Shown: positions 8,738 through 26,800, counted from the stretch's first letter. The stretch is DNA of 32,000 bases from Stigmatella ashevillensis (GCF_028368975.1 NZ_JAQNDM010000002.1:3186425-3218424); one strand, 5' to 3'. The notes: generated by a model not told the origin, from the sequence alone. A program made the numbers and translations.

Positions 8738-8763
8738 TAAGCGCCCAGCCCGCCGATGGCCGC

Positions 8764-9225
8764 TTAGTCCACCGGGCCGAAATGGATTCGCGCAGAGGTG
8801 TGCCCATCCGCCGGGTCCAAGGCGAAACGGAGCCGCTCCAAGAAACCGGTGAAGCCCAGAATGTTCGGGCCCGGCCACGTCTTCAAGGCAAGGCACGTGG
8901 CGTCGACCGTGATGTCCTTTCCCTGGTCCGCGAGAAGCCGGATGGGAAGGCGATGGAGCGTGCCTGGAAACCGCCCGATCCGGGTCGACATGGTGATGGC
9001 TTCCAGCCCCTCGCCAAGTTCATCCCCCAGCAGTTCGATGTGCTCTGGGCCAATCAGGGTCCAGCGCGCCCCTGTATCCAGCATCGCGAGTTCGTCCGAT
9101 TGAGAGCCGAACCGGCAGCGCACGGCCACGCAAAGGGTCCCCGTCGGACGCGGCTGATCGAGAAAGACCTCGGCACTGCCGCTGCTCCAGGGACGGCTCC
9201 CCGAAGTATCTACCCAATGGAGCAC
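8764..9225 (-). CDS. Retropepsin-like (clan AA) aspartic protease domain protein
   Basis: AMLDTGARWTLI contains the D-T-G-A catalytic signature after a hydrophobic strand. The C-terminal ILGFTGFLERLRFALDP matches the usual (L/I)LG.dfL..f...D ending of single-lobe bacterial and archaeal retropepsin homologs. Last gene of a three-gene minus-strand module. Confidence 0.65.
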   Translation of the reverse strand: MLHWVDTSGSRPWSSGSAEVFLDQPRPTGTLCVAVRCRFGSQSDELAMLDTGARWTLIGPEHIELLGDELGEGLEAITMSTRIGRFPGTLHRLPIRLLADQGKDITVDATCLALKTWPGPNILGFTGFLERLRFALDPADGHTSARIHFGPVD

Positions 9226-9239
9226 CCCACCCCTCCTGC

Positions 9240-9875: not shown

Positions 9876-10561
9876 ATCGCGCCATCCACTTCATTCAAAA
9901 AGCGGGGAGTCCACTGGAGAGTATAGTTACCTCGGCCTTGAAGAACGAAGCTCTTCCCGGAAGGAGCTTTGCTCTGCTGGGAAATTTCTCTGACGCAACC
10001 ACTCGGCGGGTTGATCGTCCAGACAGAGGGATTCACATTGAGAATCTGCTCCCCTGCTACGACATGCTGTGCTCGCGCTGGGGCCAGTGTGAACCTTAAG
10101 TCCTCGCCCAGGATTAAGTAATTGGCCCTGATCTCCGCATCTACAGGGCGAGTGACAGGCCACAAGGCGCCAAGCCGATCCAGAACACTTGGGAAGCTGC
10201 CCACCGTCCGACTGCTCTCCACCATGACCTCTGGGGGCGAATCGTCCGGGCTACGACTCCAGCGAAAGTCCCAAGTCGCCGTCCCCGGCATGTCCTTGTC
10301 CCAAGCCACCAGTGTGGTCATGAAGGGGCGGAACTGCTCCAACCGCTCCGGGAGCGAAAAGAAGGCAGCGCGGCACCTCTGGCCGTCATCAAGGACTTCG
10401 AGATTCAGTTTGGCAAGAACCTCGTGCCAGTGGGCCAGTTCGGACTGGACCTGGAAACGAACGTGAAGTTTCGAGAGTCCCACGCCCCTGGTCCGGAAGA
10501 AGAAGACCTCGTCTGTGTGCGTGGCATCTTCGGGAAAGGACACCTGGGTTTCCGCGCTCAT
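9821..10561 (-). CDS. Hypothetical protein (246 aa), no recognisable domain; compositionally atypical
   Basis: Uninterrupted ORF with no signal peptide or TM. Uses host-rare codons (two TTA, plus ATA, AGA, AGT). Local G+C is 54% and 57% in two 100-nt hand counts (9901-10100), against 69% in the adjacent PBP1A gene. Confidence 0.6.
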   Translation of the reverse strand: MSAETQVSFPEDATHTDEVFFFRTRGVGLSKLHVRFQVQSELAHWHEVLAKLNLEVLDDGQRCRAAFFSLPERLEQFRPFMTTLVAWDKDMPGTATWDFRWSRSPDDSPPEVMVESSRTVGSFPSVLDRLGALWPVTRPVDAEIRANYLILGEDLRFTLAPARAQHVVAGEQILNVNPSVWTINPPSGCVREISQQSKAPSGKSFVLQGRGNYTLQWTPRFLNEVDGAIWDGLRIFLKPRRSKPKR

Positions 10562-10696
10562 CGGGCAGTGGGTTCCCAGCTTGCCTGTCTGTCTGCCCGG
10601 GCACCCAGCTCCACCATTATCCAGCTCCGGCGCAGGCTCAAGGCTTGAGTCCCAGAATGCCCACTGGGCTCAACGATTTCCGGAACAGGTTTGGCC

Positions 10697-14340: not shown

Positions 14341-15801
14341 ATGCCGAAGGCTCCCAGTATCGAGAAGCTCCTCCAGAGCGGTTCAGCGGAGTGGAACAAG
14401 CTCCGCAAGTCCGGACAGGTCTCCACCGACCACACGGGCGCTACCTTCACGCAGCTGTTCTCCGCCAATGCGGACCTCTCGGGCCTAGAGCTCGTGGGCT
14501 CCGAATGGGAGCGCTGCGACCTGTCCAAGATGAACTTCCGCGACGCGGACCTGTCCAACGCCTACTTCCATGGCGGCCGGCTCCAGGACTGTGACTTCCG
14601 CGGGGCCAACCTCGAGGGCGCCACCTTCGAGAAGTTGAAGTTGCTGCGCTGTGACTTCACGGGCGCCAAGGGGCTGGACGACCTGGAAATGGAGGATGTG
14701 GACATGGACCGGGTGCAGGGCCTGGACGGCGAGGAAGCCCCGCCCCCGCCCCCGCCCCCCGCCCAGGGCATCACCGCCTTCACCCGCGAGCAGCGGGAGA
14801 AGGCCATGGGGGCCGCCGCGGCCGCCGTGGCAGGCCCCGCCGCGGAGGAGCTGCCCCCCTTCAAGCCCCAGGATCCTCCGGGCTCACTGCTCTTCCGGGC
14901 CTTGAAGCGGCTCCCGGCGCCGCCCCCCTGGGTGCTGGACGTCCCCGGCCTGCGCCCGTTGCTCCCGCAGCGCCTGCCCCCCGGCTCCTCGCTGGAGGCG
15001 ATGTACCGCGAGGCGGTGAAGACGCGGCTGGAGAACAAGAAGCCCGGGGCGGACCCGGGCGCGGTGGAGCGGGCGCAGAAGGCGCTGCGGCTGGGCGGGA
15101 AGGACTCGGCCGTGGCGGCCATGTACCTGCGCGAGGTGGGCGTGCTCCCGCTGTCGCGCTTCTCCGCGGCCAAGGTGCTCAAGGATGCGCTGCGCGCCGA
15201 GGTGGATGTGGATGATCTGACGGGCTCCATCGACCCGCGGGTGGCCGGGGCGCTCTTGGAGCTGCGGCTGACGCACGAGGTGGTGGAGCACCTGCAAGAG
15301 GCCCGGCGCCGCCTGGCCGCCACGCAGCTCTACACCGCGCTGCTGGAGGCGGGCTTCACCCCGGAGAACAACTGGGACGAAGCGCTGGAGTCGGCCGAGC
15401 CCGCCCTGGAGCTGGCACAACTGGCCACGGGCGATGACCGCAACGCGCTCTTCGAGGCCTTCCAGGTGTTCGCCGCCCTGCCGGACGAGGCCCGGCTGCG
15501 GCGGTTGGCGTACCTGGCCGAGACGGTGACGAACCTGGAGCTGGTGAGCCGACTGCCCGAGGGCATGGAGCCGCAGTGGCTCACCGGGCCCGAGACGCGC
15601 GAGTGCCACGACCGGGAGATGACGTACGTTCAGGCGCTCCGGGCACAGGACATTCCCACCAAGGTGCCCGCCCTGGCCCAGGCAGAGCTCGGCGTTCCCG
15701 AGGGTCAGGTGCCCGAGGACAGCGACGACGACCTGTTCGTCCACCTGCGCTGTGACGTGTGCGGCAAGGAGAAGCTCATCGTTCAATCCCGGATCGACTG
15801 A
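14341..15801 (+). CDS. Pentapeptide-repeat protein with a poly-Pro linker and a long helical C-terminal region of unknown function
   Basis: A(D/N)LxX repeats: ANADLSGLELVGSEWERCDLSKMNFRDADLSNAYFHGGRLQDCDFRGANLEGATFEKLKLLRCDFTGAKGL. These are followed by EEAPPPPPPPAQG. Start at ATG 14341 (residue 127 of the track ORF). Confidence 0.8.
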   Translation: MPKAPSIEKLLQSGSAEWNKLRKSGQVSTDHTGATFTQLFSANADLSGLELVGSEWERCDLSKMNFRDADLSNAYFHGGRLQDCDFRGANLEGATFEKLKLLRCDFTGAKGLDDLEMEDVDMDRVQGLDGEEAPPPPPPPAQGITAFTREQREKAMGAAAAAVAGPAAEELPPFKPQDPPGSLLFRALKRLPAPPPWVLDVPGLRPLLPQRLPPGSSLEAMYREAVKTRLENKKPGADPGAVERAQKALRLGGKDSAVAAMYLREVGVLPLSRFSAAKVLKDALRAEVDVDDLTGSIDPRVAGALLELRLTHEVVEHLQEARRRLAATQLYTALLEAGFTPENNWDEALESAEPALELAQLATGDDRNALFEAFQVFAALPDEARLRRLAYLAETVTNLELVSRLPEGMEPQWLTGPETRECHDREMTYVQALRAQDIPTKVPALAQAELGVPEGQVPEDSDDDLFVHLRCDVCGKEKLIVQSRID

Positions 15802-15856: not shown

Positions 15857-16429
15857 TCAAGGCAAGGAGTACGTCACGGCGGGGGGCAGCAGAATCCTCA
15901 CCGGGTCTCCTGGCCGGATGACGCCCGGGCGATCCACCCACCCCACCAGCCCTCGCCGCTGGTGCGCGGCCTTCACGAAGCGGCTCGCCAGGCCTTCCCG
16001 GTCCGGATACCAGGGCTGCAGCGCCCGCCCCGCCTTCCGGCACGGCGTGTTCTCCCCTTCCATCGTCAGGATGACCTCTTCGGGGAAGAACAGGCGCGTC
16101 CCGGGAGGCAGGTGCGTCAGCCGGGGCACCCCCGCCAGCTCCAGGTTCGCGCCCAGCCAGGCCGCCTCCACCCGGGGCACCTCCAGCGCCGCCGCGATGA
16201 GCGCCAGTTCCTCCGTGGACACGAGGGAGACCTGGCGCGTGTTGCGCACGAGCGCGCCCTTGGGACACCAGGGCGTGCGCACATCCGACGTGCGTGTCAG
16301 CCCCGCGTGCCGGTCTCCCACGAAACCTTCCAGGGACACCTTCCCCTCGGGCACCTCGCGCGCAGGGTGATTCTTTGGCTCGGAGCCGATGAGGACGCGA
16401 ACCGTGTGCCCGGTGAGGTGCGTGCGCAT
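15857..16429 (-). CDS. MOSC domain-containing protein
   Basis: EGFVGDRHAG...RQVSLVSTEEL...LGANLELAG...PPGTRL...LTMEGENTPCRKAG fits the MOSC beta-barrel pattern, including the conserved Cys. Start at ATG 16429 (MRTHLTGHTV), 8 nt after the upstream stop. The longer track ORF (to 17038) is an out-of-frame run through the MBL gene. Confidence 0.85.
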   Translation of the reverse strand: MRTHLTGHTVRVLIGSEPKNHPAREVPEGKVSLEGFVGDRHAGLTRTSDVRTPWCPKGALVRNTRQVSLVSTEELALIAAALEVPRVEAAWLGANLELAGVPRLTHLPPGTRLFFPEEVILTMEGENTPCRKAGRALQPWYPDREGLASRFVKAAHQRRGLVGWVDRPGVIRPGDPVRILLPPAVTYSLP

Positions 16430-16437
16430 GAAGGGCC

Positions 16438-17412
16438 TCAGAAGAGCGAGAGCTGCTGGGGCTTGCCCAGCGTGCGCGCGTCGATGCCTTCCTCCCGCAG
16501 CAGCCGCGCCAGCTCCTCCGCGAAGCCGTGGTGCGTGATGACCTCGCGAGCCCCCGTGGCCTTCACATAGCCCACCAGCGAGGGGCAGTCCGCATGGTCC
16601 GAGAGGGGAAAGGCCACCTGCGCGCCATAGCGATGCGCGGCGCCTGGATCCAACGCCCACCCCGTGAGCACCGCGGTGGCGCGCGGCCACACGGGCGCCA
16701 GGGCCCCCGTGCGCGCCTGATGCGGTGGGAAGAAGAGCACCTCTCCCGGCTGCACCGTCCCCTCGAAGCGCCGCAGCGGCTCGATGCGCACGCCCAGCTC
16801 CGCGTAGAGCTGTGTCACCTCGAAGATGGAGGGGTGCGCCACCAGCGGGAAGCCGCGTCCAGAGAGGTACTTCATCGCCTCCTGGCTCTTGCCCAGGGGA
16901 TAGCCCAGCAACACGGGCACCGCCCCCCGTTCGAGCTGCTGGCGCACCCACGCCTCCACCCTGCCCAGCACTTCGTCCTTCGGCGGAAAGCGGTACCGCG
17001 GATGGCCGAACGTGGCCTCGATGACGAGCGTGTCGCACTCGGCCACCTGCACCGGCTCCGCCGTGAGCGAGGGCGTGACGTTCAGATCCCCCGTATAGAC
17101 GATGCGACGCCCATCCCCCCGGATGACGCGGAGCTGGGCACTGCCCAGGATGTGGCCCGCCGAGAGCAACTCCAACGTCAGGGGACCCAGCTCGAACGGC
17201 TGGTTGTAGGCCACCGCCACCGGGTCCTTCACCCGGCCCAGCCGGTGCGTCATGAAGCGCAGGGTGGCGGCCGTGGCGATGGTCCGCTCATGGCGCGCGA
17301 TGTGGTCCGAGTGCCCGTGGCTGACGAAGGACAGCGGCGTCTTGCGCATCGCATCCAGCGCCAGCGGGGTACCCGTCAGGTGAAGTCCGGTTCGCCTCAA
17401 CTCGACGCTCAT
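16438..17412 (-). CDS. MBL-fold metallo-hydrolase, beta-CASP-like (COG1236-type nuclease/hydrolase)
   Basis: VSHGHSDHI (HxHxDH), SAGHILGS and IEATFG, with a C-terminal PLSDHAD...VITHHG typical of beta-CASP motifs. Start taken at ATG 17412 (MSVELRRTGLHLTG). Confidence 0.82.
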   Translation of the reverse strand: MSVELRRTGLHLTGTPLALDAMRKTPLSFVSHGHSDHIARHERTIATAATLRFMTHRLGRVKDPVAVAYNQPFELGPLTLELLSAGHILGSAQLRVIRGDGRRIVYTGDLNVTPSLTAEPVQVAECDTLVIEATFGHPRYRFPPKDEVLGRVEAWVRQQLERGAVPVLLGYPLGKSQEAMKYLSGRGFPLVAHPSIFEVTQLYAELGVRIEPLRRFEGTVQPGEVLFFPPHQARTGALAPVWPRATAVLTGWALDPGAAHRYGAQVAFPLSDHADCPSLVGYVKATGAREVITHHGFAEELARLLREEGIDARTLGKPQQLSLF

Positions 17413-17502
17413 GGGGAAGCCTGGATATAGCGCGCCTGGGACCGCAGGGGGGGACATGCTCCACGACGCGCCCGCCCGCCCGTCCGCCCTGCCTGCGAAA
17501 CC

Positions 17503-18420
17503 TCAGGCCCCCGCCAGGGGCCGCTCGCGCCAGCGGTCCCACAAGGCCGAGCCCACCTCCGACACCAGCACGCCCAGCACGATGAGGCTGCCCCCGCTCC
17601 ACTCCCGGGGGCCCAGCGTCTCGTATCCCAGCGACACCGAGAAGAGCGCGGCGAACACCGGCTCCAGCGCATAGATGAGGGCCGCGCGCACCGCGCCCGT
17701 GCGGGCCTGGGCCCACGTCTGCACGCTGATCGCGACGGCGCTGCCGAGGACGCCACAGAAGAACACGGCCCCCACGAAAGCCCCTGTCCACGCCACCCGC
17801 GTCTCCACGAAGGGCAGGCACGCCGCCGAGAGCAGCGCCACGCCCCAGAGCTGCACGGCGACGAGCGCGCTGGCCCCTTCCTTCGGCGCGAACCGCCCCG
17901 TCAGGACAATGTGGAGGGCATAGGACACCGAGCCCGCCAGCGTGAGCAGGTCTCCCGAGGAGATCCCCCCGGAGGCCTCCTCGCCCGCGTGCGTGAGAAA
18001 GAAGAGCCCCACGGTCGAGAGCACCACCCCCACCAGCGAGGGGACGCGAGGAACCCGGCGAAAGAGCACCAAGGTCAGCAGCGGAACGAAGAGGACACAC
18101 AGGCCCGTGATGAAGGCCGAGCGCGCGGGCGAGGTGTGCGTCAGCCCCACCGTCTGAAACACGTACCCGCTGAAGAGGAAGAGGGACAGCAGGCCCCCTC
18201 GCCGCAGGTAATCCCCGGAGAGCATCCGCCGCCCCGCCACGGCGCTCAGCACCACGGCCCCCAGGCCAAAGCGCAGCACGAGGAACGAGAAGGGATCTCC
18301 ATGGCCCAACGCGTCCTTCACCACCACGAAGGTGGTGCCCCAAAACACGGTGAGCAGCGCCAGGGCGCCGTCCGCCTGGAGATGGGCGCGACGCTCCCGC
18401 GGTGAAGTCACTTCGGCCAT
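17503..18420 (-). CDS. EamA/DMT-family transporter (about 10 TM)
   Basis: Two EamA-like halves. The sequence is hydrophobic throughout: LLTVFWGTTFVVVKDAL..., ...ALIYALEPVFAALFSVSLGYE... Start at ATG 18420 (MAEVTSPRERRAHLQ). Confidence 0.88.
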   Translation of the reverse strand: MAEVTSPRERRAHLQADGALALLTVFWGTTFVVVKDALGHGDPFSFLVLRFGLGAVVLSAVAGRRMLSGDYLRRGGLLSLFLFSGYVFQTVGLTHTSPARSAFITGLCVLFVPLLTLVLFRRVPRVPSLVGVVLSTVGLFFLTHAGEEASGGISSGDLLTLAGSVSYALHIVLTGRFAPKEGASALVAVQLWGVALLSAACLPFVETRVAWTGAFVGAVFFCGVLGSAVAISVQTWAQARTGAVRAALIYALEPVFAALFSVSLGYETLGPREWSGGSLIVLGVLVSEVGSALWDRWRERPLAGA

Positions 18421-18454
18421 GACGGAGGTCCAGCTAGCACACTTCCCTCGCCCA

Positions 18455-19420
18455 TCAATCCAATGCGCGCTCCAACACCACCAAGGGCTTGCTGCCCCCC
18501 GAGGCATCCCACTCGGCGTTGACCCGCCGGATAAGCTCTGGGGGCGAGAAGCGAAACCCCACCCTCCGGAACGTCCTCAGGGAGGCGGCGTTGTCCTCAT
18601 CGACATCCGCGAAGATGCATTCCTCGCCCTGCTTTCGCGCCGCTTCCACCAGACAGGTAAGGAGCTGGTGGGCCACCCCCATCCTCCGGGCTCTCGGCGC
18701 CACCACCAACGAGCGGACCCAGAGCCCGTCCAGCGCCAGCCCTTCCTCGCGGTAGCTGTCCAGGTAGGCGAACCCACACAGGCGGCCCGCCGAGTCGAAG
18801 GCTCCCGCCGAAGCCCCCACCGCCCCTCCCTCCCGCGCCCACCGGCCCAGCAGTTGGCGGCGCAGGAACACCGAGGAGACCAGGAGCCGTTCCCCGGCGA
18901 ACACCAGGAGCGCGTCCAGATCCTCGGCCCGAAGCAGGCGCACCTCCAGCCGCCCCAACCACCGCGCCCGCACGGGGCGGGACCACCCCGAGAAGGTGAA
19001 GTCCCGCAGCCGCCGAGCCGCGCCCCTCGCCACGGGACGGGCCCACAACGCGGAAGCCAACCGCTGCCCCAGAAAGAGCGAAGGCCGCGTCACGCGGGGC
19101 AAGGGCAAAATCCACCACCCCCGGCGCAGGGCCGTCACACGCCCGAGCGGAACTCCCTCGGGATCTCCGTGGCCCAGCAAGGAGGCCGTCACCAAGGGGC
19201 CCGTGGAAACCACCACGTGCGCGATGAGCCGACGCCCCACCCTCACCAGCGCCACATCGCCCCGGGACAGCTCCTCCGGCCCACAGCGAAGCACCTGGAT
19301 CGAATCTCCGCTGCGCAGCAAGGGATACAGGCTCCGGCCCGCCCCTCGCAGCCAGAGCCGACGGCCCAGAGACGTGGACTCGACGAAGGCCGCGAGATCA
19401 ACCGGGTGTGTGCCAACCAT
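18455..19420 (-). CDS. Fusion protein: N-terminal S24/S26 (signal-peptidase/LexA-like) peptidase domain plus C-terminal GNAT acetyltransferase
   Basis: GRSLYPLLRSGD matches the G-x-S-[ML]-x-P-x-L-x-x-G-D catalytic-Ser box (Ser30). GDVALVRVGRRLIAHVVV resembles the GD...I.HRV strand of His-type S26B enzymes (His68). C-terminal GLWVRSLVVAPRARRMGVAHQLL is GNAT motif A, followed by DNAASLRTFRRVGF. ATG 19420 overlaps the kinase gene by 23 nt. Confidence 0.78.
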   Translation of the reverse strand: MVGTHPVDLAAFVESTSLGRRLWLRGAGRSLYPLLRSGDSIQVLRCGPEELSRGDVALVRVGRRLIAHVVVSTGPLVTASLLGHGDPEGVPLGRVTALRRGWWILPLPRVTRPSLFLGQRLASALWARPVARGAARRLRDFTFSGWSRPVRARWLGRLEVRLLRAEDLDALLVFAGERLLVSSVFLRRQLLGRWAREGGAVGASAGAFDSAGRLCGFAYLDSYREEGLALDGLWVRSLVVAPRARRMGVAHQLLTCLVEAARKQGEECIFADVDEDNAASLRTFRRVGFRFSPPELIRRVNAEWDASGGSKPLVVLERALD

Positions 19421-20165
19421 GAAGCCAGTCCCTCACGAAGCCCGCCGCGGCGGCGTCCTTCCGGAAGACGAACCTGCGGATTTCGACACATGAGAGGATG
19501 CGAACCAACCGCTGGAGCACCTCCCCCTGCGACGCCTCGCCCGGCAGCGGACGGAAGACCTGCGCCATCATCGCCGCAATGGCCTCGGGGGCTGCCACCG
19601 CCTCCAACCGCTCCTCGCCGCCCTTCTCCAGCAACAGCACCGCGGCCAACTGCGCCCGGGCGAGCGACGAGGGCAGATCCAGATCCGAGCAGAACGGGCT
19701 GCCCTCGACGCGCGCCCCGGGGTAGAGCCCGAGCACTTCGTCCGAGAGCACTTCGGCCCCGGCCTCCCGGGCGCACAGCCGGGTGAAGGTGGACTTGCCC
19801 GCCCCGCTGGGCCCGATGGCCACCACCGCCCGTCCCTGGAAGGCCACCCCGGCGGCATGCAGCAACAGGCCTCCCTGGCGCAGCGTGGCCAGTTGCATCC
19901 CCACCCGCAGCGCCAGTTCAGTATCTAGGAAGGCCTGAGGGGGCTCCACCCGCACCACATCGCCCTCTACCCGGAAGCGGGGACCCGAGGGCCGACGAGG
20001 GTCGAGGGGCATGCTCGGCCCCTCGGGCAAGGCCCCCGCCCGGAGACTCAGGCGGGGAGCGCCGTCTTCGGCCAGGAACGGGGCCAACGCGCACCGTGCC
20101 CCTACCTGGGTCAGCAGCCCCTCATCCACTCCCACGCTCCACTCCCCGAACCGCAGTCGCCGCAT
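19398..20165 (-). CDS. HprK-like P-loop kinase (HPr kinase C-terminal-domain family), stand-alone
   Basis: LHAAGVAFQGRAVVAIGPSGAGKSTFTRLCAR..GAEVLSDEVLGL parallels the HprK catalytic core (lHg..v...g.GvLi.G.SG.GKS...L...G..lvaDD). No N-terminal HprK domain is present. Confidence 0.78.
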   Translation of the reverse strand: MRRLRFGEWSVGVDEGLLTQVGARCALAPFLAEDGAPRLSLRAGALPEGPSMPLDPRRPSGPRFRVEGDVVRVEPPQAFLDTELALRVGMQLATLRQGGLLLHAAGVAFQGRAVVAIGPSGAGKSTFTRLCAREAGAEVLSDEVLGLYPGARVEGSPFCSDLDLPSSLARAQLAAVLLLEKGGEERLEAVAAPEAIAAMMAQVFRPLPGEASQGEVLQRLVRILSCVEIRRFVFRKDAAAAGFVRDWLHGWHTPG

Positions 20166-20184
20166 CCGGGACCCTGCCGCCTCT

Positions 20185-20322
20185 TCAGCAGGCCCCCGTC
20201 TCTGGATCGATGATGCAGCTGGGCGTGAAGAGGTCCGGAACGAGAATCCGCTCCGAGCGCACCTGGGGAGGGGCGTAAGCCTTCTTCTTCTCCGCCTTCA
20301 CCGGCTGCACCGTGGTTGCCAT
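20185..20322 (-). CDS. 45-aa candidate precursor/substrate peptide: MATTVQPVKAEKKKAYAPPQVRSERILVPDLFTPSCIIDPETGAC
   Basis: Internal ATG (residue 26) of track ORF 20185..20397. Third-position G+C is 38/45 (84%) by hand count. AAGGAG lies directly upstream. It sits between the giant lipoprotein gene and the kinase gene on the same strand. The 75-nt upstream extension overlaps the giant gene and reads as junk (MEKWTWPWVIVSRIQPGSWC). Confidence 0.6.
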   Translation of the reverse strand: MATTVQPVKAEKKKAYAPPQVRSERILVPDLFTPSCIIDPETGAC

Positions 20323-20325
20323 GGT

Positions 20326-20331
20326 CTCCTT
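20326..20331 (-). promoter_or_regulatory. Shine-Dalgarno (AAGGAG) for the 45-aa peptide gene
   Basis: The minus strand reads GTG TAT TAC TAA GGA GAC C ATG. The SD overlaps the TAA stop of the giant gene. Spacing to the ATG is only 3 nt, which is short. Full AAGGAG sites are uncommon elsewhere in this window. Confidence 0.55.
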
Positions 20332-23300
20332 AGTAATACACCACGACCCGGGCTGGATTCGACTGACTATCACCCACGGCCAGGTCCATTTTTCCATCCC
20401 CGTTGAAGTCCAGAATGGTCAAACTGATTCCAAGCGACGTCGTGGATGCCAGCTTGGACTGCCAGAAGCCATTCTCCTGGGCAAGGTCGAACTCGGCCCC
20501 CGGAATGCCCTGGTTGTAGAAGACGGCCGCGGCGTTCTGCCCGACGACGTTCTGGCCCACGGCGATGTCGACGCGTCCATCTCCGTTCAAGTCCCCCAGG
20601 GCCAGGGCGTTGCCGAAACGGCCGCCACCGACGATCTCCACCGGCGCCGTGGGGAAGCCCGAAGGGCCTCCATCCCGGAACACGAAGACCTTGCTCTGGG
20701 TGGCCGAGGAGGCCACCAGATCCAGCCCCGCGCCCCCCACCAGGTTCACCCCGCCAAAGGCCTCGGTGCCAAAGCCGTTCTGCGAGTTGCCGGTCGTATC
20801 GGGCCCCTGGTGAATCACCTGGAGCGCGTCCGTCGTGGACACGTTCCGGCCCAGGGCGTGAACCGCGGCGCCTGAATAGACATAGAGGTTGTTGACCCGC
20901 TCATGGGAGGCCGGGACGGTGAAATCCGCGACGCCATCGCCCGTGATGTCCCCCAGGCGCACGTAGCCACGGGAGCGTCCGAAGAAGACCATCCCCGTGG
21001 GGGCCGTGAAGACCTTGTCGGACTTGCTCGTGGGCACGACGCAGGCGGAGGTGGCGTTGCAGCCTGTTCCCAAGGCCCGCCAAGCCTCCGGCGTGCGGCT
21101 GTAGAAGAGGTAGACCTTTCCGGGCGTCTCGCCGTGCGAGCTGAGCAGCAGCTCATGAAGCCCGTCCCCGTTGATGTCCTGGATCATCTTCACCGAGCCG
21201 CCCAGCGTGGCCCCGGTGATGGCCGTGTCATGCCGGAACTCGATGGGGGCCGTCGTGTCCAGCACCTGGCCCTTCCGGCCAAAGTAGAGGAACGCCCGGC
21301 CGGAGTTGGACGTCCAGCCACGAGAGCCCACCAGCAGGTCCGCCACCGGCTCCGAGGTGGCGTTGCCGACATCACCGACATCGAAGTCACTCCCATAGGC
21401 TTGAGCGCCCGTCTCCGGGACCGTCAATTCCTGCCGAACCGGCGGGGAGCCCACCGGATCGCTGCTGCCGTAGTACACGTACGCCGAGCCCGGATTGCCC
21501 AGGACGCCTGTCACGATCAGGTCTTCCCTGCCATCCGCGTTCAGATCTCCCCGGGCGGTAATATAGGTGGCGTAGCTGTTGCTCGGGACGCCTGGGTTCG
21601 TCACCGTCACCTGCCGCCAGAAGTTGTCGATCTGTGGCTGCACCGCGAAGGGCGCGTAGTTGCCAATCTCGTCCCGGGGACGGAGCTGGATGGAGTAACG
21701 GGCCAGGGGCGGCAACGTCAGCGTGTAGGCCGTGGACGTGGCAGGCAGCAGCGCTCCCGTTTCCTGCTTCACCTTCCCGCCGAAGAAGGTCGCCTCGTTC
21801 TCGATGCCGTTCAGAAGCTGGGCGTTGACCGTCCACCGCAGGTCATAGCCCACCCCCATGCCGGACAGCCCGTCATCTCCACTCGCCGTCCACGACACCT
21901 GCACCTTGGCCGCCCGCTCCTGGCCGGGCACCAACGCCATCGTCACGGTGGGCGCCGCGGGAGGCACCACGTCCACGGTGGCCGTGACGGTGTGGCGCGC
22001 CGTGTTCCCGGACGCATCCACCACGCGCACCTCGAGCGTGCCATCCGTGTTGTGCGGCAACGTCACGGGAAGCTCCAGGGTCTCCGGCGAGGCGGAGATC
22101 GTGAACTCCGAGGAGACGGAAGCTCCCTTGTAGAGCGCCTGCACCGTGCTGCCCACGCCCTGCGTCACGGTGAGTGTGAACACCGCATTGGCATCCCCGC
22201 CCGGGGACATGTCCACCACGCGGTCCGGTGCAGGAGATGGGAAGAGATAGGCGTTGGTGCTCGCGACGAAGAAGAGCGCCGTGGGGGAGGGAGAGATGGA
22301 GGTGATGAGCGGGGGCGTGATGTCCACCGTCACGTCCACGAAGTCGACAGCCCTCAGCCCCGAGATGTTGAACACCTCCACGGCCAGGCGTGTCTGATCG
22401 CCGTCCGCGAGCGTCACATCGAAGAAGAACGCCCCCGTCGCCGGATCCGCGGTGACGGCATCCTCCGGTGTGGTCGAGCCTCCCTTGTAGAGAATCACCT
22501 CGCGGCCATTGCATGCCGGCGTGATACCGGCCAGGCGGTACTGCAACCCCGCCGCCGAGGGGTCCAGATCGTCCTGGGCAAGCAACGTGGCCACCGGCTC
22601 ACTCGGCGTGGTGAGCGTGATGGCACAGCCAGGGATTTTCACATCGACGTTGGCCTTGGAATCACTGCCCGCGTTTCCAGCGGTATCACGGGCCACGGCC
22701 GAGACGGTCTGCACGCCCACGGGGAAGTTGAGCGTGCCTTGCGCGACTCCCGAGACGACCGGCAGGGTCCCCACCACCGCGGCGGGAGCGCTCCCCACCT
22801 GCGAGAGGATGCTCACCGTGCTCACGTCCCCTCCTGCCACATTGACCTGAACGGGGATGTCCGTGTTGTCGTAGACAGCGCTCGCCGCGGGGGCCACCAG
22901 CGTCACGGTGGGGGCTTCCAGATCCACCGTCAGGGTCCGGACCACCGAGGTCTCGTTGCCCGAGGTGTCCACGGCAACCACCGAGAGCGTGTACTCCGTC
23001 TTGCCTGTGCCCGGCACGGTGAACTCATGCGTGGCCACCAGCTCGGAAGGCGTCAGCGACACCGGATTTCCCCCCGGGGAGAGCAACATCCGCACACCGC
23101 CCGCGCCCACGTCCGCGCTCGTGTTGATGGCCGCCCGGAGCTGGAAGCCGACGGCCGTCGAGCCGTCATCCGCGAGGCCGAACTCGGTGCGCGTGGGCGC
23201 GCTCACCACCAACGAAGGCGGGACTCGGTCCAGGCGGAAGGCGAAGAAGGCCGCCGTGTTGAGCGGATAGAAGGGGGTCGGATTGAGCACCCGGTTCTGA

Positions 23301-26134
23301 TTGCCCGCAGCGTCCGTCACGGTCACGACGAGCGCGTAGTCCGCCTCGATACCGGTGGGCATCGCATCGAGGGAGACGGTGGCCAGGCCACCGCCGGCAT
23401 TGCCCTGGCCATAGACGATGCCGGGATTGCTGGCGTTGCGAACCTGGACCGGCCGCCCATCTTCCAGACCGTCAATGGTCACCCGGAGCTGCACGGAGCC
23501 TGTGGGCCACTCGACGGCATTCAGCCGCCGATCCCCGTTGACGTCTCCCACCAGTTCCACGGCACGCACCACCGGCTCGGTGCTGTCCACGGTGATGTTC
23601 ACCGACTGAGACACGGAGATGGCCCCGTCGTCGAGAACGGCGCGCAGGGCGTAGCGCCCATCGGGGTAGGTGAAATCCGGGGTGAAGGCCGGCACGTTGG
23701 CGGCCAGGGTGTACCAGCCCGAGCCATCCCGGCAGGGCGCGGCATCCTGGCTCGGCGCCACGCTCGCGCAGATGTCCACGACGGCGTTCGCCGAACGTCC
23801 ATTCGCGGCGTACTTCAGGGGCGCCTGGATGCCCGACTCCTCGGGCGTGACGTCGGAGTTCACGACGTAGACCGGGGCGGGGGAAGCCGCGGGAATCTCC
23901 AGGGCGATGTTGCCCGGCTGGGTGTCCACCAGGAGCAGCACCGTGGCGCAGGCCACCGTGCCTCCGGGGCCGATGAGCTCGGCGCGCAGCACGTTGGAGC
24001 CCTCTTCCAGCTCCACGGTGTTGAACCGCTTCGTCCGCTCGTTCGCGGCGACATCCACCACGGCGATCTCGGTGGCCCCGCGCAGCAATCGCAGCTTGCT
24101 GGCCGCCTGGGTGTCCACGCTCAGGGTGACCGAGACACTCAACCCGCCGTTGGGCAGCACGATGCCATCCGTGGCCCCCAGGTACCGGCCAATCGCGGGG
24201 GTCTCGAAGGCCAGCGAACTCGGAGAGAAGGCCAGGGTCAGCGCCCGGACTTGCTCGCTGGTGTTGCCCGCCAGATCCGTGGAGGCGACTTGCAACAGAC
24301 ATTCGCCGCTGAGCGGCACGGAGACGTCCCTCAACACGAGCGCCCCGTGGTCATCGGCCTGTCCCGCCACCCCCGCGGCCAGGGCGCACCCCGTGACGAG
24401 CACCGAGGCGTACGGCTCGGTCTCCACCTCGAGGGCCACTTGCATGCCCGGAGCCAGAGACGTGTCGTTGAGCCCGAAGCCCAGAACAGTCTCTCCGGCG
24501 GGCACACCGCGCACCTGGAACGCCAGCACCGGCGGCGTGGAGTCCAGCTCCAGGGAGAGCAGCTGACTCGTGGCGCCCCCTGGACAGGAGGCCAGGAGCC
24601 GGTACGCGCCATCGCTCTCCAAGAGGAGCGAAACCAGCGCCGACCCCGAAGATGCGACGGCGGTGCTCCGTCCCCGCTCATTGCCATTCACATCCAAGGC
24701 CACCACGGTGACCGGCCCGGCCCCCGACTCCACGCGGACCGAGGTGTTCATGCCCGTGGTGGGAATCAGGGTGCCATTGTCCGGCGAGATGATGCGGCAG
24801 ACGGGCTGGCCCGTGGTGACCGTGACGGTCTCCGCCAGGCACTGCTCCAAACCCGCTGCATTGCGGACACAGGCCTGAACGGCATTGGCGCCCCCCGCCA
24901 GTTGCACGGTGAAGGCCGCCTCGCGCCCACCGTTCGTCACCGCCCGCTGCGGCTGGGCGAACTTGCCGGTGACGCTGGTGAAGAGCGTCACCTGGGTGCC
25001 AGGAGGCAGCGAGTCCACCTGGACGGTCACCGGTACCTGCACGCCGTTGTCGAGCCGGCCGTCCACCGGATCCTCCGAGAGGCTCTTCGGCACCACCAAT
25101 TTGAGGGTTGGCGTCGTGCTGGCCACCGTGACGGGAACCTGCCGGGTGGAGACATTGCCCCCCGCATCGGAGACTTTCAGCGTGAAGAGGTAATCCCCAT
25201 CCACCGGCACCGTGACGGCGGGGAACGTCACGCCTCCGGAAATGACGGGGGCGGACAGATCCGGCGCGCCAACCCGGGACAGGGTGGCCAACACACCGGG
25301 CTCGGTACACCCCACGGTGGCCTCCACCCGGAACGTCGTGGACGCCACCGCCGCCACTGGCCAGGCCAGTTCCACGCGCGGAGACACCGTGTCCAACGTG
25401 ATGTGGCGCCGGCCGGACGTCACCTCGTCATCGCCATTGCGGACCACCGCGTAGCACTGGGCTTCCTGGGACTCGCATGCGAACTGGGACAGCGTCACCT
25501 CGACCTGGGTGGCCCCATTGCCCGCCACGGTGAAGTCCGTGGGAGGCACCCCACACGCCTGCTCGCAATAGATCGTGCCCTTTCTTCCCGACAGGCCCAC
25601 GGCATTCACGCTGAAGCGCAGCTGGTAGCCGGGCGAATCCGGGTTCGCGTCATCCGCCTCGAGCAGCACCTCGCCTTCGGGGGGCTGCGTCAGATCCACC
25701 GATGGCGGCTCCGAGGTCACCGTGACGCTGATGCGCTGGGTGGCCGTGCGCCGCGAGCTGGCCTCCTCCACCGTCACCTGCAGCACGTTGGTGCGCGACT
25801 GCAACAGCGCCGCCGGGAAGCGGGCCGTGTCCCCCTCGATGAGGGCCTTGGGCCCCTCCGTCCATCCCTGCTCGGACGGCGTGCGCACCTCCAGCTTCGC
25901 GCTGGCCAGCTTCACCGCCCGGCCCGAGGTGTCCCGGGCCCGCACCACCACCTCGTGCTGGAAGCCGTCGGTGGCCGTGTCCTCATCATCGGAGAGCACC
26001 AGCCGCTGCCCGTCCACGGGCTTCTCGAACCCCACCTCCAGCTCCGACTCCACCGGTGGCTCGCCGCAGCTGCATCCGGACGCACTCCACAGCGCGAGCC
26101 CCATCAACAGCCACTGCCACATCGATCGGCGCAT
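20330..26134 (-). CDS. Giant (about 1,934 aa) secreted protein or probable lipoprotein: tandem bacterial Ig-like domains, an FN3-like domain, and a C-terminal seven-repeat FG-GAP/VCBS beta-propeller
   Basis: Signal peptide MRRSMWQWLLMGLALWSASGC from ATG 26134 (GGGAGA SD 4 nt upstream); an alternative GTG 26203 overlaps the PqqD stop. Recurrent Ig-domain ends carry D.AGN/D.SGN (VSDAGGN, STDLAGN, VTDAAGN, AVDTSGN, ARDTAGN, VVDASGN). The last ~430 aa (about 20333-21625) carry FG-GAP calcium-loop repeats: GDLNADGREDLIV, QDINGDGLHELLL, GDITGDGVADFTV, GDLNGDGRVDIAV, LDFNGDGKMDLAV. Confidence 0.9.
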   Translation of the reverse strand: MRRSMWQWLLMGLALWSASGCSCGEPPVESELEVGFEKPVDGQRLVLSDDEDTATDGFQHEVVVRARDTSGRAVKLASAKLEVRTPSEQGWTEGPKALIEGDTARFPAALLQSRTNVLQVTVEEASSRRTATQRISVTVTSEPPSVDLTQPPEGEVLLEADDANPDSPGYQLRFSVNAVGLSGRKGTIYCEQACGVPPTDFTVAGNGATQVEVTLSQFACESQEAQCYAVVRNGDDEVTSGRRHITLDTVSPRVELAWPVAAVASTTFRVEATVGCTEPGVLATLSRVGAPDLSAPVISGGVTFPAVTVPVDGDYLFTLKVSDAGGNVSTRQVPVTVASTTPTLKLVVPKSLSEDPVDGRLDNGVQVPVTVQVDSLPPGTQVTLFTSVTGKFAQPQRAVTNGGREAAFTVQLAGGANAVQACVRNAAGLEQCLAETVTVTTGQPVCRIISPDNGTLIPTTGMNTSVRVESGAGPVTVVALDVNGNERGRSTAVASSGSALVSLLLESDGAYRLLASCPGGATSQLLSLELDSTPPVLAFQVRGVPAGETVLGFGLNDTSLAPGMQVALEVETEPYASVLVTGCALAAGVAGQADDHGALVLRDVSVPLSGECLLQVASTDLAGNTSEQVRALTLAFSPSSLAFETPAIGRYLGATDGIVLPNGGLSVSVTLSVDTQAASKLRLLRGATEIAVVDVAANERTKRFNTVELEEGSNVLRAELIGPGGTVACATVLLLVDTQPGNIALEIPAASPAPVYVVNSDVTPEESGIQAPLKYAANGRSANAVVDICASVAPSQDAAPCRDGSGWYTLAANVPAFTPDFTYPDGRYALRAVLDDGAISVSQSVNITVDSTEPVVRAVELVGDVNGDRRLNAVEWPTGSVQLRVTIDGLEDGRPVQVRNASNPGIVYGQGNAGGGLATVSLDAMPTGIEADYALVVTVTDAAGNQNRVLNPTPFYPLNTAAFFAFRLDRVPPSLVVSAPTRTEFGLADDGSTAVGFQLRAAINTSADVGAGGVRMLLSPGGNPVSLTPSELVATHEFTVPGTGKTEYTLSVVAVDTSGNETSVVRTLTVDLEAPTVTLVAPAASAVYDNTDIPVQVNVAGGDVSTVSILSQVGSAPAAVVGTLPVVSGVAQGTLNFPVGVQTVSAVARDTAGNAGSDSKANVDVKIPGCAITLTTPSEPVATLLAQDDLDPSAAGLQYRLAGITPACNGREVILYKGGSTTPEDAVTADPATGAFFFDVTLADGDQTRLAVEVFNISGLRAVDFVDVTVDITPPLITSISPSPTALFFVASTNAYLFPSPAPDRVVDMSPGGDANAVFTLTVTQGVGSTVQALYKGASVSSEFTISASPETLELPVTLPHNTDGTLEVRVVDASGNTARHTVTATVDVVPPAAPTVTMALVPGQERAAKVQVSWTASGDDGLSGMGVGYDLRWTVNAQLLNGIENEATFFGGKVKQETGALLPATSTAYTLTLPPLARYSIQLRPRDEIGNYAPFAVQPQIDNFWRQVTVTNPGVPSNSYATYITARGDLNADGREDLIVTGVLGNPGSAYVYYGSSDPVGSPPVRQELTVPETGAQAYGSDFDVGDVGNATSEPVADLLVGSRGWTSNSGRAFLYFGRKGQVLDTTAPIEFRHDTAITGATLGGSVKMIQDINGDGLHELLLSSHGETPGKVYLFYSRTPEAWRALGTGCNATSACVVPTSKSDKVFTAPTGMVFFGRSRGYVRLGDITGDGVADFTVPASHERVNNLYVYSGAAVHALGRNVSTTDALQVIHQGPDTTGNSQNGFGTEAFGGVNLVGGAGLDLVASSATQSKVFVFRDGGPSGFPTAPVEIVGGGRFGNALALGDLNGDGRVDIAVGQNVVGQNAAAVFYNQGIPGAEFDLAQENGFWQSKLASTTSLGISLTILDFNGDGKMDLAVGDSQSNPARVVVYY

Positions 26135-26199
26135 TCGTCTCCCACCCTCTCCAGCGGCAGGCCGTGGGCCTGCGGCTCGCGACATCAGCGCAAGGGACC

Positions 26200-26550
26200 T
26201 CACGGCCCCAGCACCAGCACCTTCTTCGCCACGAGGAGCCGGAGGAAGGCGACCGTGTCCGCTTCACACGCCTCCGGTTCCACCTCGAATTCGTCACACA
26301 GCACCGCCACGATGTCCGCCACCGTCCGGCGGCCATCCACCAACTCCACGATGCGCTCGGCCACCTCGGACACCTGACCCCGGGCGTCCTCGAACAGGTG
26401 CAGGTGCTCATCGGGCCCCGCAGCCATCAGCCGCCCACCCACGCGCTGCACCCCCGTCTCCGGATGCAGCCGAGGCACGGCGCGCAGCACCTCCCGGCCC
26501 GCCTCCGCGGGAGCTTTCGTTCCATCTTTGTTGGAAACGAATCCAGCCAC
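26200..26550 (-). CDS. PqqD-family protein (RiPP recognition element-type peptide chaperone)
   Basis: ...HLHLFEDARGQVSEVAERIVELVDGRRTVADIVAVLCDEFEVEPEACEADTVAFLRLLVAKKVL fits the PqqD winged-helix pattern (LN.tg..iw.l.DG.rtv.eI...l..ey.v......Dv..fl..L). GTG start with a GGGAGA SD 6 nt upstream. First gene after a 250-bp divergent intergenic region. Confidence 0.8.
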   Translation of the reverse strand: MAGFVSNKDGTKAPAEAGREVLRAVPRLHPETGVQRVGGRLMAAGPDEHLHLFEDARGQVSEVAERIVELVDGRRTVADIVAVLCDEFEVEPEACEADTVAFLRLLVAKKVLVLGP

Positions 26551-26672
26551 TTGAATCTCCCGGAGGCCTGCCCCCCGGCCTGGAGCTTCCCGGCCTCACG
26601 GAATCTGAAGGCATGCTATCCGCGAAGATCCGGCCCGGCCAAATCCCTGATCTCCTCAGTCCCCTCACGGAT

Positions 26673-26744
26673 CAAGGTTTTGGAAGAAATCCCCGGAACT
26701 CCCCAGGGCCCGCACAAGGATTTGGGCGGAAACCGCGAAACCGC
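26673..26744. promoter_or_regulatory. Direct repeats in the divergent control region upstream of the PqqD operon
   Basis: CAAGGtTTTGG at 26673 and CAAGGaTTTGG at 26715 are 42 bp apart; the 27-nt units match 19/27. A tandem GAAACCGC GAAACCGC sits at 26729-26744. Confidence 0.35.
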
Positions 26745-26800
26745 TATGACGGGGCGGCGCCAGACTCCCACGAGGGAGGGCGACACGATGGGGAGGGCGG

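Follow-up and report, generated by a model that had tools for sequence, protein, structure and literature searches.

Several described systems resemble, each in part, the locus reported here. The SynChlorMet (SCM) cassette, which has been defined by bioinformatics only, comprises ScmC (TIGR04249), the PqqD-like ScmD (TIGR04248) and two radical SAM/SPASM enzymes, ScmE and ScmF (TIGR04250/51), and to our knowledge no precursor has been identified and no substrate assigned for it. In the quinohemoprotein amine dehydrogenase (QHNDH) the small subunit QhpC is cross-linked by the radical SAM/SPASM enzyme QhpD and is then assembled with a beta-propeller subunit. Acetylation is also found in RiPP pathways, the GNAT MdnD of microviridin being responsible for N-terminal acetylation. 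In albusnodin, lysine is acetylated by AlbT (PMC9266682). Paeninodin-type lasso clusters combine a discrete RRE (PadeB1) with an HprK-like kinase (PadeK/ThcoK) which acts on the linear precursor (PMC9266682, PMC5067487); these HprK-homologous kinases phosphorylate a conserved C-terminal Ser and carry a His-Lys-Asp-Asp motif (PMC9266682). Finally, ER-type or SipW-like signal peptidases (S26B) and the S24 LexA-like clan have in common with the peptidase-like domain of the locus the nucleophile motif G-x-S-[M/L]-x-P, a beta-barrel fold of similar size and, in the case of S26B, His in place of Lys as the general base.

The locus lies between positions 18455 and 26550 of the window, by which the whole 32,000-nucleotide stretch of Stigmatella ashevillensis DNA that was analysed is meant, and sequence comparison leads us to regard it as a previously undescribed variant of RRE-dependent peptide maturation. 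Its five genes are all on the minus strand and run from a PqqD-family RRE gene (26200..26550; the longest open reading frame starts at GTG and the true start may be a few codons downstream) through a giant FG-GAP lipoprotein gene (20330..26134 from ATG), a 45-aa precursor peptide gene (20185..20322) and the gene of a ScmC-family (PF27840) HprK/PEPCK-like P-loop protein (19398..20165) to a gene in which an S24/S26-like peptidase domain is fused to a GNAT (18455..19420). An alternative lipoprotein start, GTG 26203, overlaps the TGA of the PqqD gene. The lipoprotein stop TAA (20332-20330) is immediately 5' of a GGAG Shine-Dalgarno sequence (SD), and the peptide ATG (20322) follows 7 nt past this stop; the spacer between the peptide gene and the ATG of the ScmC gene (20165) is 19 nt, and the ScmC gene shares 23 nt with the start of the fusion gene. 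This layout had been proposed in an earlier note on the same DNA, and the gene coordinates bear it out in all its overlaps and spacers. Directly downstream of the fusion gene an EamA/DMT transporter (17503..18507, minus strand; Pfam EamA, 1e-31; longest open reading frame, the start being probably internal) is a possible exporter and a candidate member of the operon. The presumed promoter region of the operon, placed by gene layout only, is the divergent intergenic region (26551..26800) between the PqqD gene on the minus strand and a Coa1-like gene on the plus strand; no sigma-70-type consensus was found in it, and a promoter and terminator scan gave no usable operon boundaries.

Loci of the window type, with the order PqqD-FG-GAP-peptide-ScmC-fusion, are the window itself, L001, L002 and L017, the last of which has a different downstream context, keeps the ScmC/fusion overlap and lacks EamA. 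Their relatives, hosted by Polyangia-type myxobacteria and by bacteria outside this group, have the order ScmC-PqqD-radical SAM/SPASM-FG-GAP lipoprotein-precursor, often followed by an S24 or S24::GNAT gene (L007, L018, L021, L040, L041, L047, L057, L076, L085-87). Among 80 metagenome loci anchored on the radical SAM gene, PqqD was detected in 73 of the 79 with room, ScmC in 53 of 58, and FG-GAP, with HMMs built in this analysis, in 25 of the 34 with room downstream; seven of the nine FG-GAP exceptions fall among the ten most distant radical SAM matches (30-39% identity). To judge by their sequences, these ScmC-PqqD-radical SAM/SPASM cassettes are distant relatives of Haft's SynChlorMet cassette (TIGR04248-04251). 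Shared with it are a Pfam ScmC-family P-loop protein that resembles HprK and, beside this, a PqqD-family chaperone. The relatives, though not the window, share the radical SAM/SPASM enzyme as well; SynChlorMet has two such enzymes, the relatives one, scoring below the ScmE/F cutoffs, and the window none. The SCM equivalog cutoffs are not reached by the window and its relatives for ScmC (16.7-38.8 bits vs 125; window 16.7) or for ScmD (20.5-40.6 vs 100; window 20.5) and, beyond the SynChlorMet components, there are here a family of precursor peptides, the giant FG-GAP lipoprotein and the fusion of S24 with GNAT. Literature searches on SynChlorMet/ScmC, on PqqD with FG-GAP and radical SAM, and on HPr kinase with SPASM and a precursor peptide found nothing relevant.

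The earlier note had seen a RiPP-like leader-peptide unit without a class-defining enzyme, and no radical SAM, lasso cyclase or B2 protein was indeed found within the 32 kb. The unit itself stands, with its RRE, conserved precursor, HprK-like P-loop protein and peptidase::GNAT fusion, and homologs of the genes do co-occur in loci of other genomes; the claim that the combination matches no known class or cassette has to be given up, as it derives from the large family just described. Read against that family, the class-defining enzyme missing here is a radical SAM maturase and not a lasso cyclase. PqqD, FG-GAP, peptide and ScmC form a separable four-gene module: Myxococcus xanthus and Corallococcus exiguus do not have it, yet retain at the corresponding position the fusion gene together with EamA, MBL and MOSC; EamA is thus found 3' of the fusion gene in genomes without the module as well. 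A scan of genomes with the P-loop pattern GPSGAGKST gave at least six distant, mostly irrelevant loci; the informative one among the matches listed is L009 (Anaerolineales), where the genes of a radical SAM and an HprK-like protein are neighbours.

The peptide encoded by the small gene (MATTVQPVKAEKKKAYAPPQVRSERILVPDLFTPSCIIDPETGAC) has a leader made of a basic patch and the motif Y-x-x-P-x-V-x-S-E-x-I, of which the family form is Y-x-x-P-x-[V/I], and a core, CIIDPETGAC, with two Cys (C-x8-C) and a C-terminal Cys (...ETGAC). The family has been traced to more than 20 loci, across which the leader is conserved while the core varies, and the leader and the two Cys are kept in all cassette types. 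In six frames, the leader motif occurs exactly once in each cassette locus searched (window, L001-L008, L017, L018) and in none of the eight control loci. Compared with the ortholog in L002 (unclassified Myxococcaceae genome GXIMD 01537) dN/dS is 0.15 at dS 1.36, which places the gene, as far as substitution patterns tell, under purifying selection. A chance open reading frame is ruled out by conservation and dN/dS, and together with the SD placement and the orthologs these mark the 45-aa reading frame, whose conservation across loci had been named as a check, as a genuine precursor. No Pfam or NCBIfam family matches the peptide, and phmmer against 1.84 billion representatives returned two true relatives and a spurious repetitive protein (P0301); searches with one peptide as query lack the sensitivity that this family requires. 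The C-terminal residue is Ser in 12 of 14 relatives with a radical SAM gene and Cys in four of six precursors of the window type, the ends of the orthologs being GAC, GVC, DDC, ECI and GEL. Of the general marks of a RiPP pathway, a gene-encoded precursor, a conserved leader, a variable core and adjoining putative maturation enzymes are present, and by this comparison the five genes are a conserved, predicted peptide-modification operon, a RiPP-like unit.

The PqqD protein, predicted as such in the earlier note, passes the Pfam gathering threshold of PF05402 (49.6 bits, cutoff 23.4, E 5.2e-13) and aligns with the PqqD of all related cassettes, including an N-terminal 'VPRLHPE..RV.G' segment. 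The lipoprotein, 1,934 aa from its ATG, starts with a lipobox-bearing segment (…WSASG-C), continues in Ig-like arrays and ends in an FG-GAP beta-propeller (FG-GAP/FG-GAP_3, 1.6e-18, and Big_13 in Pfam); it is collinear with the FG-GAP proteins of the radical SAM-type cassettes. It had been taken for an oddity embedded in the middle of the operon. Its conservation in the related loci rules out an insertion and marks it as a core member of the cassette, always directly upstream of the precursor; a precursor follows FG-GAP in all eight radical SAM-anchored loci in which the FG-GAP 3' end is on the contig. Gene linkage is what suggests a role for the lipoprotein in the pathway.

The P-loop protein was expected to match Hpr_kinase_C (PF07475), and no match was obtained in Pfam at E<=0.1. 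Its assignment to PF27840 (ScmC) is made through its orthologs, for which matches to this family are precomputed: the 93%-identical P0001, most other homologs listed, and the genes of L001 and L002. The kinship with HprK is confined to the P-loop in the NCBIfam HprK_rel_A match (1.5e-6, 27.6 bits vs a cutoff of 200) and in a PDB profile search (E 0.0016). The AF2 model (pLDDT 94) is closest to ATP-PEPCK in Foldseek against PDB (5e-7), with HprK/P weaker (5e-4). In the family alignment His103 and Lys124 are invariant and Asp142 is nearly so, followed by Glu or Asp (Glu143 in the window), which gives His-Lys-Asp-Glu here vs the His-Lys-Asp-Asp of the lasso kinases, a comparison with the motif as described for PadeK/ThcoK-type kinases (PMC9266682). 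Alignment and fold suggest that the ScmC-family protein is probably a peptide kinase. The lasso kinases act on a precursor that ends in Ser, a feature shared by the 12 relatives mentioned above; the analogy is weaker in the window because its precursor has no C-terminal Ser.

The fusion protein consists of a Ser/His peptidase-like domain (aa ~20-110, ~19091-19363), a helical linker and a C-terminal GNAT (aa ~157-320, ~18458-18952), both domains being encoded on the minus strand. The GNAT half is secure (PF00583, aa 208-289, 50.5 bits vs a cutoff of 20.7, E 3e-13), as the earlier note had supposed, and in the AF2 model (pLDDT 84) it resembles N-acetyltransferases with a Foldseek TM-score of 0.7 relative to the target, the best structural matches including the N-alpha-acetyltransferases RimI, Ard1 and Naa60; the query being the whole fusion model, GNAT matches dominate and the result is uninformative on the N-terminal domain. 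The S26/S24 peptidase also proposed there has no significant Pfam match by itself (Peptidase_S24 PF00717, 11.6 bits, E 0.24, below the cutoff of 23.3) and was recovered through homologs: the N-terminus is 31% identical (E 2e-8) to the stand-alone Peptidase_S24 of cassette L018, which itself passes PF00717 (31.2 bits, 1.9e-7), as does the homolog in L057 (24.1 bits). Ser30 in GRSLYP and His68 in AHVV are the predicted catalytic residues and correspond to the pattern of the clan, namely Ser in G-x-S-M-x-P with Lys (S24/S26A) or His (S26B); both are kept in all 13 homologs linked to cassettes and in 65 of the 90 homologs of the fusion, and the Arg that follows the catalytic-type His in most relatives is not found in the window. 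The N-terminus is thus, from homology, an S24/S26-type Ser/His peptidase domain which is detectable only through its homologs. It differs from the signal peptidases in being predicted as cytoplasmic, without a membrane anchor, fused to a GNAT and below the Pfam threshold, and its substrate is presumably a RiPP leader and not a signal peptide. Ser and His are intact in all fusion homologs of Stigmatella, Hyalangium, Archangium, Myxococcaceae GXIMD 01537 and Pyxidicoccus xibeiensis, the same taxa that gave ScmC matches (the module as such was observed in the window, L001, L002 and L017), and every substitution falls in the Myxococcus/Corallococcus/Pyxidicoccus clade. The window fusion is homologous over its full length to that of L021, and a second S24::GNAT fusion is present in L040; a metagenome scan with the L021 fusion as query gave no match. 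The operon resembles the MdnD and AlbT pathways in encoding a GNAT along with peptide maturation; the difference is the covalent fusion of this GNAT to a putative leader peptidase, and we know of no described RiPP pathway with such a fusion.

The reading we lean towards, and place just on the probable side, is that the locus is a functional derivative, without radical SAM, of a widespread and uncharacterised peptide-maturation cassette. PqqD would bind the Y-x-x-P-x-V leader of the precursor and present the peptide to the partner enzymes. The ScmC-family protein would then phosphorylate the peptide with ATP, the likely acceptor in radical SAM-containing relatives being the C-terminal Ser; the window type, with Cys at this end, would need a different acceptor. 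Leader removal may be the task of the S24-like Ser/His domain in the fusion, plausibly just before the first Cys, where the residues are small (T-P-S followed by C in the window, A-L-[A/S/G] followed by C in many relatives), and the fused GNAT may acetylate the product, most simply at the newly exposed amine. Without a radical SAM enzyme the two core Cys of CIIDPETGAC would form a disulfide in place of an enzyme-made cross-link. The matured peptide would most likely be a ligand or small subunit of the surface lipoprotein, not a free antibiotic; joint action of the two is most likely because the peptide gene is predicted to be translationally coupled to the FG-GAP gene in every lineage.

It is also conceivable that the pathway is split. 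The gene of its radical SAM/SPASM maturase would then lie at another site of the Stigmatella genome, and the product would be cross-linked as in the radical SAM-type relatives. Myxobacteria carry many radical SAM/SPASM genes, the gene stands in cis in every more distant relative, and both core Cys are retained in the window. Nevertheless, no radical SAM domain is encoded in the 32-kb window or in the 10-kb flanks of L001, L002 and L017, and the names Stigmatella, Hyalangium, Archangium and Myxococcus are missing from the best 120 homologs of the myxobacterial cassette enzyme (all at least 48% identical). The overlap of the PqqD stop with the FG-GAP start leaves no remnant of the gene, and the core sequence and C-terminus have changed together with its loss, which makes a split unlikely. 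A decaying relic, in which the genes left after the loss are non-functional and kept by synteny only, is improbable. In its favour, the class-defining enzyme is gone, four genes have been lost from Myxococcus and Corallococcus, a sister clade, and the peptidase residues decay there; yet the module is conserved and its reading frames are intact in Stigmatella, Hyalangium, Archangium, Pyxidicoccus xibeiensis and GXIMD 01537, the peptide is constrained as its dN/dS shows, the ScmC His/Lys/Asp and the S24 Ser/His are retained, and gene overlaps and SD placement are preserved.

The persistence of the fusion, EamA and MBL genes in Myxococcus without the module counts against the preferred reading, and the GNAT may therefore have an independent job. 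Were it part of a separate unit for small-molecule acetylation and export with EamA, MBL and MOSC, the cassette would be limited to PqqD, FG-GAP, peptide and ScmC, and the conservation of the GNAT domain in Myxococcus/Corallococcus fusion homologs would be explained. We regard this as distinctly unlikely, given that full-length-homologous S24::GNAT fusions adjoin radical SAM-type cassettes in unrelated contexts (L021, L040), a stand-alone S24 homolog is encoded 3' of the precursor gene in L018 and in L047, the ScmC/fusion overlap is found in the window and persists in L017 though EamA is absent there, and the S24 Ser/His decays only in the clade without the module. Very improbable is a split canonical lasso pathway with PqqD as B1, the HprK-like protein as tailoring kinase, and the genes of the cyclase and the B2 protease at a distant site. 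Its points of support are that the leader, with Y-x-x-P-x-V, is similar to the YxxPxL motif of lasso leaders, PqqD matches lasso_PqqD_Bac weakly (1.7e-6, below the cutoff), and HprK-type kinases are present in paeninodin-type clusters. Against this, the window lacks a lasso cyclase and a B2 protease and its putative kinase belongs to ScmC, not Hpr_kinase_C; neither an Asn-synthetase-like macrolactam cyclase nor a transglutaminase-like B2-type (PF13471) leader protease is found in the Pfam lists of the related loci, so that the arrangement which the earlier note had named as a refuting condition, a cyclase/B2 pair accompanying the PqqD/HprK pair, was seen in none of them and the lasso pathway was rejected. 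The only Transglut_core gene seen, in L003, is an unrelated TgpA-type one, ~9 kb downstream beside MoxR and DUF58, and the recurrent partner is a radical SAM/SPASM enzyme. The likely cleavage site leaves a two-Cys core of 11 residues at most, which does not suffice for a threaded-tail lasso.

Beyond the radical SAM-less derivative preferred above, a bolder and still doubtful proposal is that the cassette family is a new kind of RRE-dependent maturation in which the peptide is dedicated to the lipoprotein co-translated with it, as ligand or small subunit and with a QHNDH-like logic, and in which the RRE, ScmC kinase and fused leader-peptidase/N-acetyltransferase of Myxococcaceae/Archangiaceae would be sufficient without radical SAM chemistry. 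The likeness to QhpC/QhpD, an analogy drawn by description only, is that of a small, Cys-containing, leader-bearing peptide which is matured, and is encoded and partnered with a periplasmic beta-propeller protein; the window differs in having no quinone-forming Trp, heme subunit or radical SAM enzyme.

The locus supplies a precursor family for the type of cassette that unites HprK-like, PqqD and radical SAM proteins, of which SynChlorMet is the nearest curated relative. A surface beta-propeller lipoprotein as the obligatory genetic partner of a RiPP-like peptide would point to a peptide-protein partnership rather than an antibiotic. The distribution amounts to a natural experiment, with Polyangia-type cassettes that have the radical SAM enzyme, those of Stigmatella, Hyalangium and Archangium that do without it, and Myxococcus and Corallococcus, which are without the four-gene module and have kept the fusion. 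M. xanthus, genetically tractable and naturally devoid of the module, would be a clean host for testing the contribution of each gene.

The window has a G+C content of 66-71%, and the layout of five minus-strand genes claimed in the earlier note was reproduced exactly in its coordinates, overlaps and spacers. The PqqD gene (26200-26550) is followed by that of the giant lipoprotein (20330-26134 from an ATG, with an alternative start at GTG 26203 overlapping the PqqD stop), and a GGAG Shine-Dalgarno directly after the lipoprotein TAA serves the 45-aa ORF (20185-20322). After 19 nt of spacer comes the ‘kinase’ gene (19398-20165), and 23 nt are shared between it and the fusion gene (18455-19420). 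The encoded fusion is 100% identical to a Stigmatella sp. ncwal1 protein. Profile searches agreed with the earlier domain calls of PqqD (E 5e-13), GNAT (3e-13) and an FG-GAP lipoprotein, in which FG-GAP and Ig-like repeats were found. The ‘kinase’ gives no match to the Hpr_kinase_C profile, and the half of the fusion called an S26 peptidase has no significant Pfam match itself, although it is homologous to a Peptidase_S24 protein of the metagenome contig L018. The RiPP-like reading of the operon is supported by sequence comparison, but it needs to be re-anchored to a family of cassettes encoding a radical SAM enzyme (rSAM). On the plus strand, a 1,824-aa ORF at 20903-26377, antisense to the FG-GAP gene, shows a codon-position G+C pattern that is not gene-like; it is a shadow ORF of the kind usual opposite high-G+C coding sequence. 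Elsewhere in the window G+C falls to 0.61-0.62 (about 8500-10600); no Pfam match was obtained for the ORFs in this stretch (8503-9498 (+), 9240-9875 (-), 9821-10561 (-)), which may be acquired or fast-evolving DNA.

More distant homologs of the ‘kinase’, which is similar to ScmC, have a radical SAM/SPASM enzyme encoded in the same cassette. The family joins ScmC and PqqD to this enzyme and also includes both an FG-GAP lipoprotein and a precursor. In a Myxococcales MAG (L003) the order is ScmC-PqqD-rSAM-FG-GAP lipoprotein (1,593 aa), then a 53-aa precursor, and the same order is found in L020 and L021. The metagenome contigs L005, L007 and L018 show ScmC-PqqD-rSAM/SPASM-precursor, with a 175-aa ORF without Pfam match in the PqqD position of L005; L018 and L007 include an S24 peptidase, and L007 also a PQQ_2 beta-propeller protein. 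A metagenome scan anchored on the rSAM family gave 80 loci, which were annotated with custom HMMs. Counting only loci whose contig extends far enough, PqqD lies directly upstream of rSAM in 73/79, ScmC upstream in 53/58 and an FG-GAP gene downstream in 25/34, and a precursor follows the FG-GAP 3' end within about 50 nt in 8/8. The exceptions come mostly from the rSAM matches least similar to the query; of the 9 loci without FG-GAP, 7 have an rSAM that is 30-39% identical to it. Together with the relatives, these counts point to a radical SAM/SPASM maturase as the class-defining enzyme, to the FG-GAP lipoprotein as a core component and to the window as a derived form, PqqD-FG-GAP-precursor-ScmC-S24::GNAT, that has lost the rSAM gene. 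No rSAM gene is present anywhere in the window, nor within 10 kb on either side in the loci of the same type (L001, L002, L017), and none of the best 120 homologs of the myxobacterial cassette rSAM (at least 48% identity) is named Stigmatella, Hyalangium, Archangium or Myxococcus; it is possible that a more divergent rSAM enzyme acts in trans. Among curated entries, the SynChlorMet cassette and the NCBIfam families GeoRSP and HprK_rel come nearest to this one, and no equivalog cutoff was reached by the window proteins or by those scanned from L003, L005 and L018. A lasso pathway was rejected: no cyclase and no B2 protease occurs in any related locus. No paper on this cassette was found in the literature searched.

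Several rSAM-type loci carry additional genes. In the three Polyangia-type cassettes a gene with a cNMP-binding domain, preceded by a patatin gene, stands immediately upstream of ScmC (L003 8618-9976, L020 7261-8595, L021 7925-8827) and may encode a cyclic-nucleotide-responsive cassette regulator; the window is without a counterpart. Extra tailoring candidates are an NTP_transf_5 nucleotidyltransferase (L007 15982-17184) and a sulfotransferase (L021 15682-16629, minus strand), types which also occur in phosphorylated lasso clusters. On the metagenome contig L085 (8354-19579), about 5-8 kb downstream of S24-ScmC-PqqD-rSAM, PqqD is matched again, as is ScmC in another and much longer ORF; the cassette may be duplicated or composite. 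Another HprK-like/radical SAM pairing with a different large partner is seen in an Anaerolineales MAG (L009 8162-14046), where the rSAM gene accompanies an HprK-like gene (weak PF07475 match) and a 1,180-aa C25 (gingipain-type) peptidase.

The 45-aa ORF is predicted to be a real precursor. The same ORF occupies the same position in the orthologous loci of Archangium lansingense (L001), Myxococcaceae GXIMD 01537 (L002) and L017, and two more orthologs were recovered as called proteins. Common to all of them are a basic patch, then Y-x-x-P-x-[V/I]-x-S-E-x-I, and a core that varies but holds two or more Cys; this leader resembles that of lasso peptides, whose motif is YxxPxL. Between the window and L002, dN is 0.197 and dS 1.356 (ratio 0.15). 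The leader regular expression matched once in each of the cassette loci scanned (the window, L001-L008, L017 and L018) and gave 0 matches in all six frames of eight cassette-free loci. There is no Pfam or NCBIfam model for the peptide. In almost all loci examined, 5-63 nt separate the lipoprotein stop from the precursor start (7 nt in the window), and this proximity argues for coupled production of peptide and lipoprotein; only in L076 does the start-codon call overlap the lipoprotein gene.

In Pfam, the ‘kinase’ homologs belong to a recent family, PF27840 ‘ScmC’, and their alignment has the invariant core LLHA…G-P-S-G-A-G-K-S-T…L-S-D-E, with His103, Lys124 and Asp142. The AlphaFold model (pLDDT 94) matches best ATP-dependent PEP carboxykinase (E 5e-7) and next HPr kinase/phosphorylase (5e-4), the predicted fold being of the PEPCK/HprK-like P-loop type. 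Many orthologs are labelled ‘potassium transporter TrkH’ by NCBI (window 19398-20165; P0002, P0006, P0018 and others), and ‘ATP-binding membrane transport protein’ or ‘Aldolase’ in UniRef; these names seem to be misannotations of what is a soluble P-loop protein of the HprK/PEPCK-like kind.

Residues 21-151 of the fusion share 31% identity (E 2e-8) with the stand-alone L018 protein, which exceeds the Pfam Peptidase_S24 threshold at 31.2 bits. G-x-S-[M/L]-x-P and a downstream His are kept in 13/13 cassette-linked homologs, the His standing in [A/V/I/L]-H-R-V in most relatives as against A-H-V-V in the window; such a Ser/His arrangement is also found in ER-type/SipW-like signal peptidases. The C-terminus is a GNAT whose structural neighbours include N-alpha-acetyltransferases. 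The chromosomal surroundings of the window genes recur in Myxococcus xanthus (L015) and in Corallococcus exiguus (L019), with acyl-CoA dehydrogenase, ETF-beta, ETF-alpha and Coa1 on one side and the fusion, EamA, MBL and MOSC on the other. PqqD, FG-GAP, peptide and ScmC are all absent there, and these four therefore form a separable module.

The persistence of the fusion in both genomes without the module speaks against its membership in the cassette. However, a full-length S24::GNAT homolog (26% identity over 303 aa) adjoins the rSAM-type cassette L021 in an unrelated context, and a second such fusion stands beside L040, likewise in an unrelated context. Stand-alone S24 homologs come after the precursor in L018 and L047, with further ones close by in L007, L041, L057, L076 and L085-87. 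In L017 the ScmC and fusion genes still overlap while EamA is absent. Finally, among 90 fusion homologs all Ser/His substitutions fall within the Myxococcus/Corallococcus/Pyxidicoccus clade: in C. exiguus, for example, Cys and Gln replace the peptidase Ser and His. Ser and His are intact in all the homologs of Stigmatella, Hyalangium, Archangium, GXIMD 01537 and P. xibeiensis. This is suggestive of an ancestral cassette member left over after module deletion, with its peptidase half then under relaxed constraint. The correlation between module loss and Ser/His decay is suggestive but not strict, because M. xanthus still has both residues despite lacking the module. Genes for an EamA transporter, an MBL-fold hydrolase and MOSC follow the fusion in the window (15857-18507) and L002, and also in the module-less Myxococcus and Corallococcus genomes; in L001 EamA and MBL are there, and no MOSC gene lies within the stretch covered. 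EamA may either export the peptide or serve a separate GNAT-linked function.

We infer every step of the mechanism proposed here. Signal-peptidase-like enzymes prefer small residues at -3/-1, and the small residues before the first Cys (A-L-[A/S/G]-C in many relatives, T-P-S-C in the window) fit this preference. Cleavage there would leave a 10-residue core, CIIDPETGAC, whose new amine could be acetylated by the fused GNAT and whose two terminal Cys could be joined by a disulfide. PqqD-family RREs (RiPP recognition elements) bind leader peptides and pass precursors to partner enzymes (PMC5067487). In lasso clusters, HprK-homologous kinases with a His-Lys-Asp-Asp motif act on the linear precursor, phosphorylating the Ser conserved at its C-terminus (PMC9266682). 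A C-terminal Ser kinase is the best guess for ScmC in rSAM-type cassettes, because 12 of 14 precursors there end in Ser (GRS, TYS, STS, RLS, RRS, TNS, SAS, SLS, SAS, STS, GSS, GPS), like the lasso kinase substrates. The L021 precursor was left out of this count as uncertain; its ORF (15381-15692) runs ~40 residues beyond the relatives' end (…TARRS/LQGRL…, the slash marking that end), which could reflect either a frameshift in the assembly or a genuinely longer peptide. The window-type ScmC keeps His, Lys and Asp although the precursors there mostly end in Cys (GAC, GAC, GVC, DDC; variants ECI, GEL). By analogy with QhpC of quinohemoprotein amine dehydrogenase, the surface beta-propeller lipoprotein may have the peptide as its ligand or as a small subunit. 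We place the window locus in the rSAM-less branch of this large uncharacterised cassette family, a branch found in Myxococcaceae and Archangiaceae.
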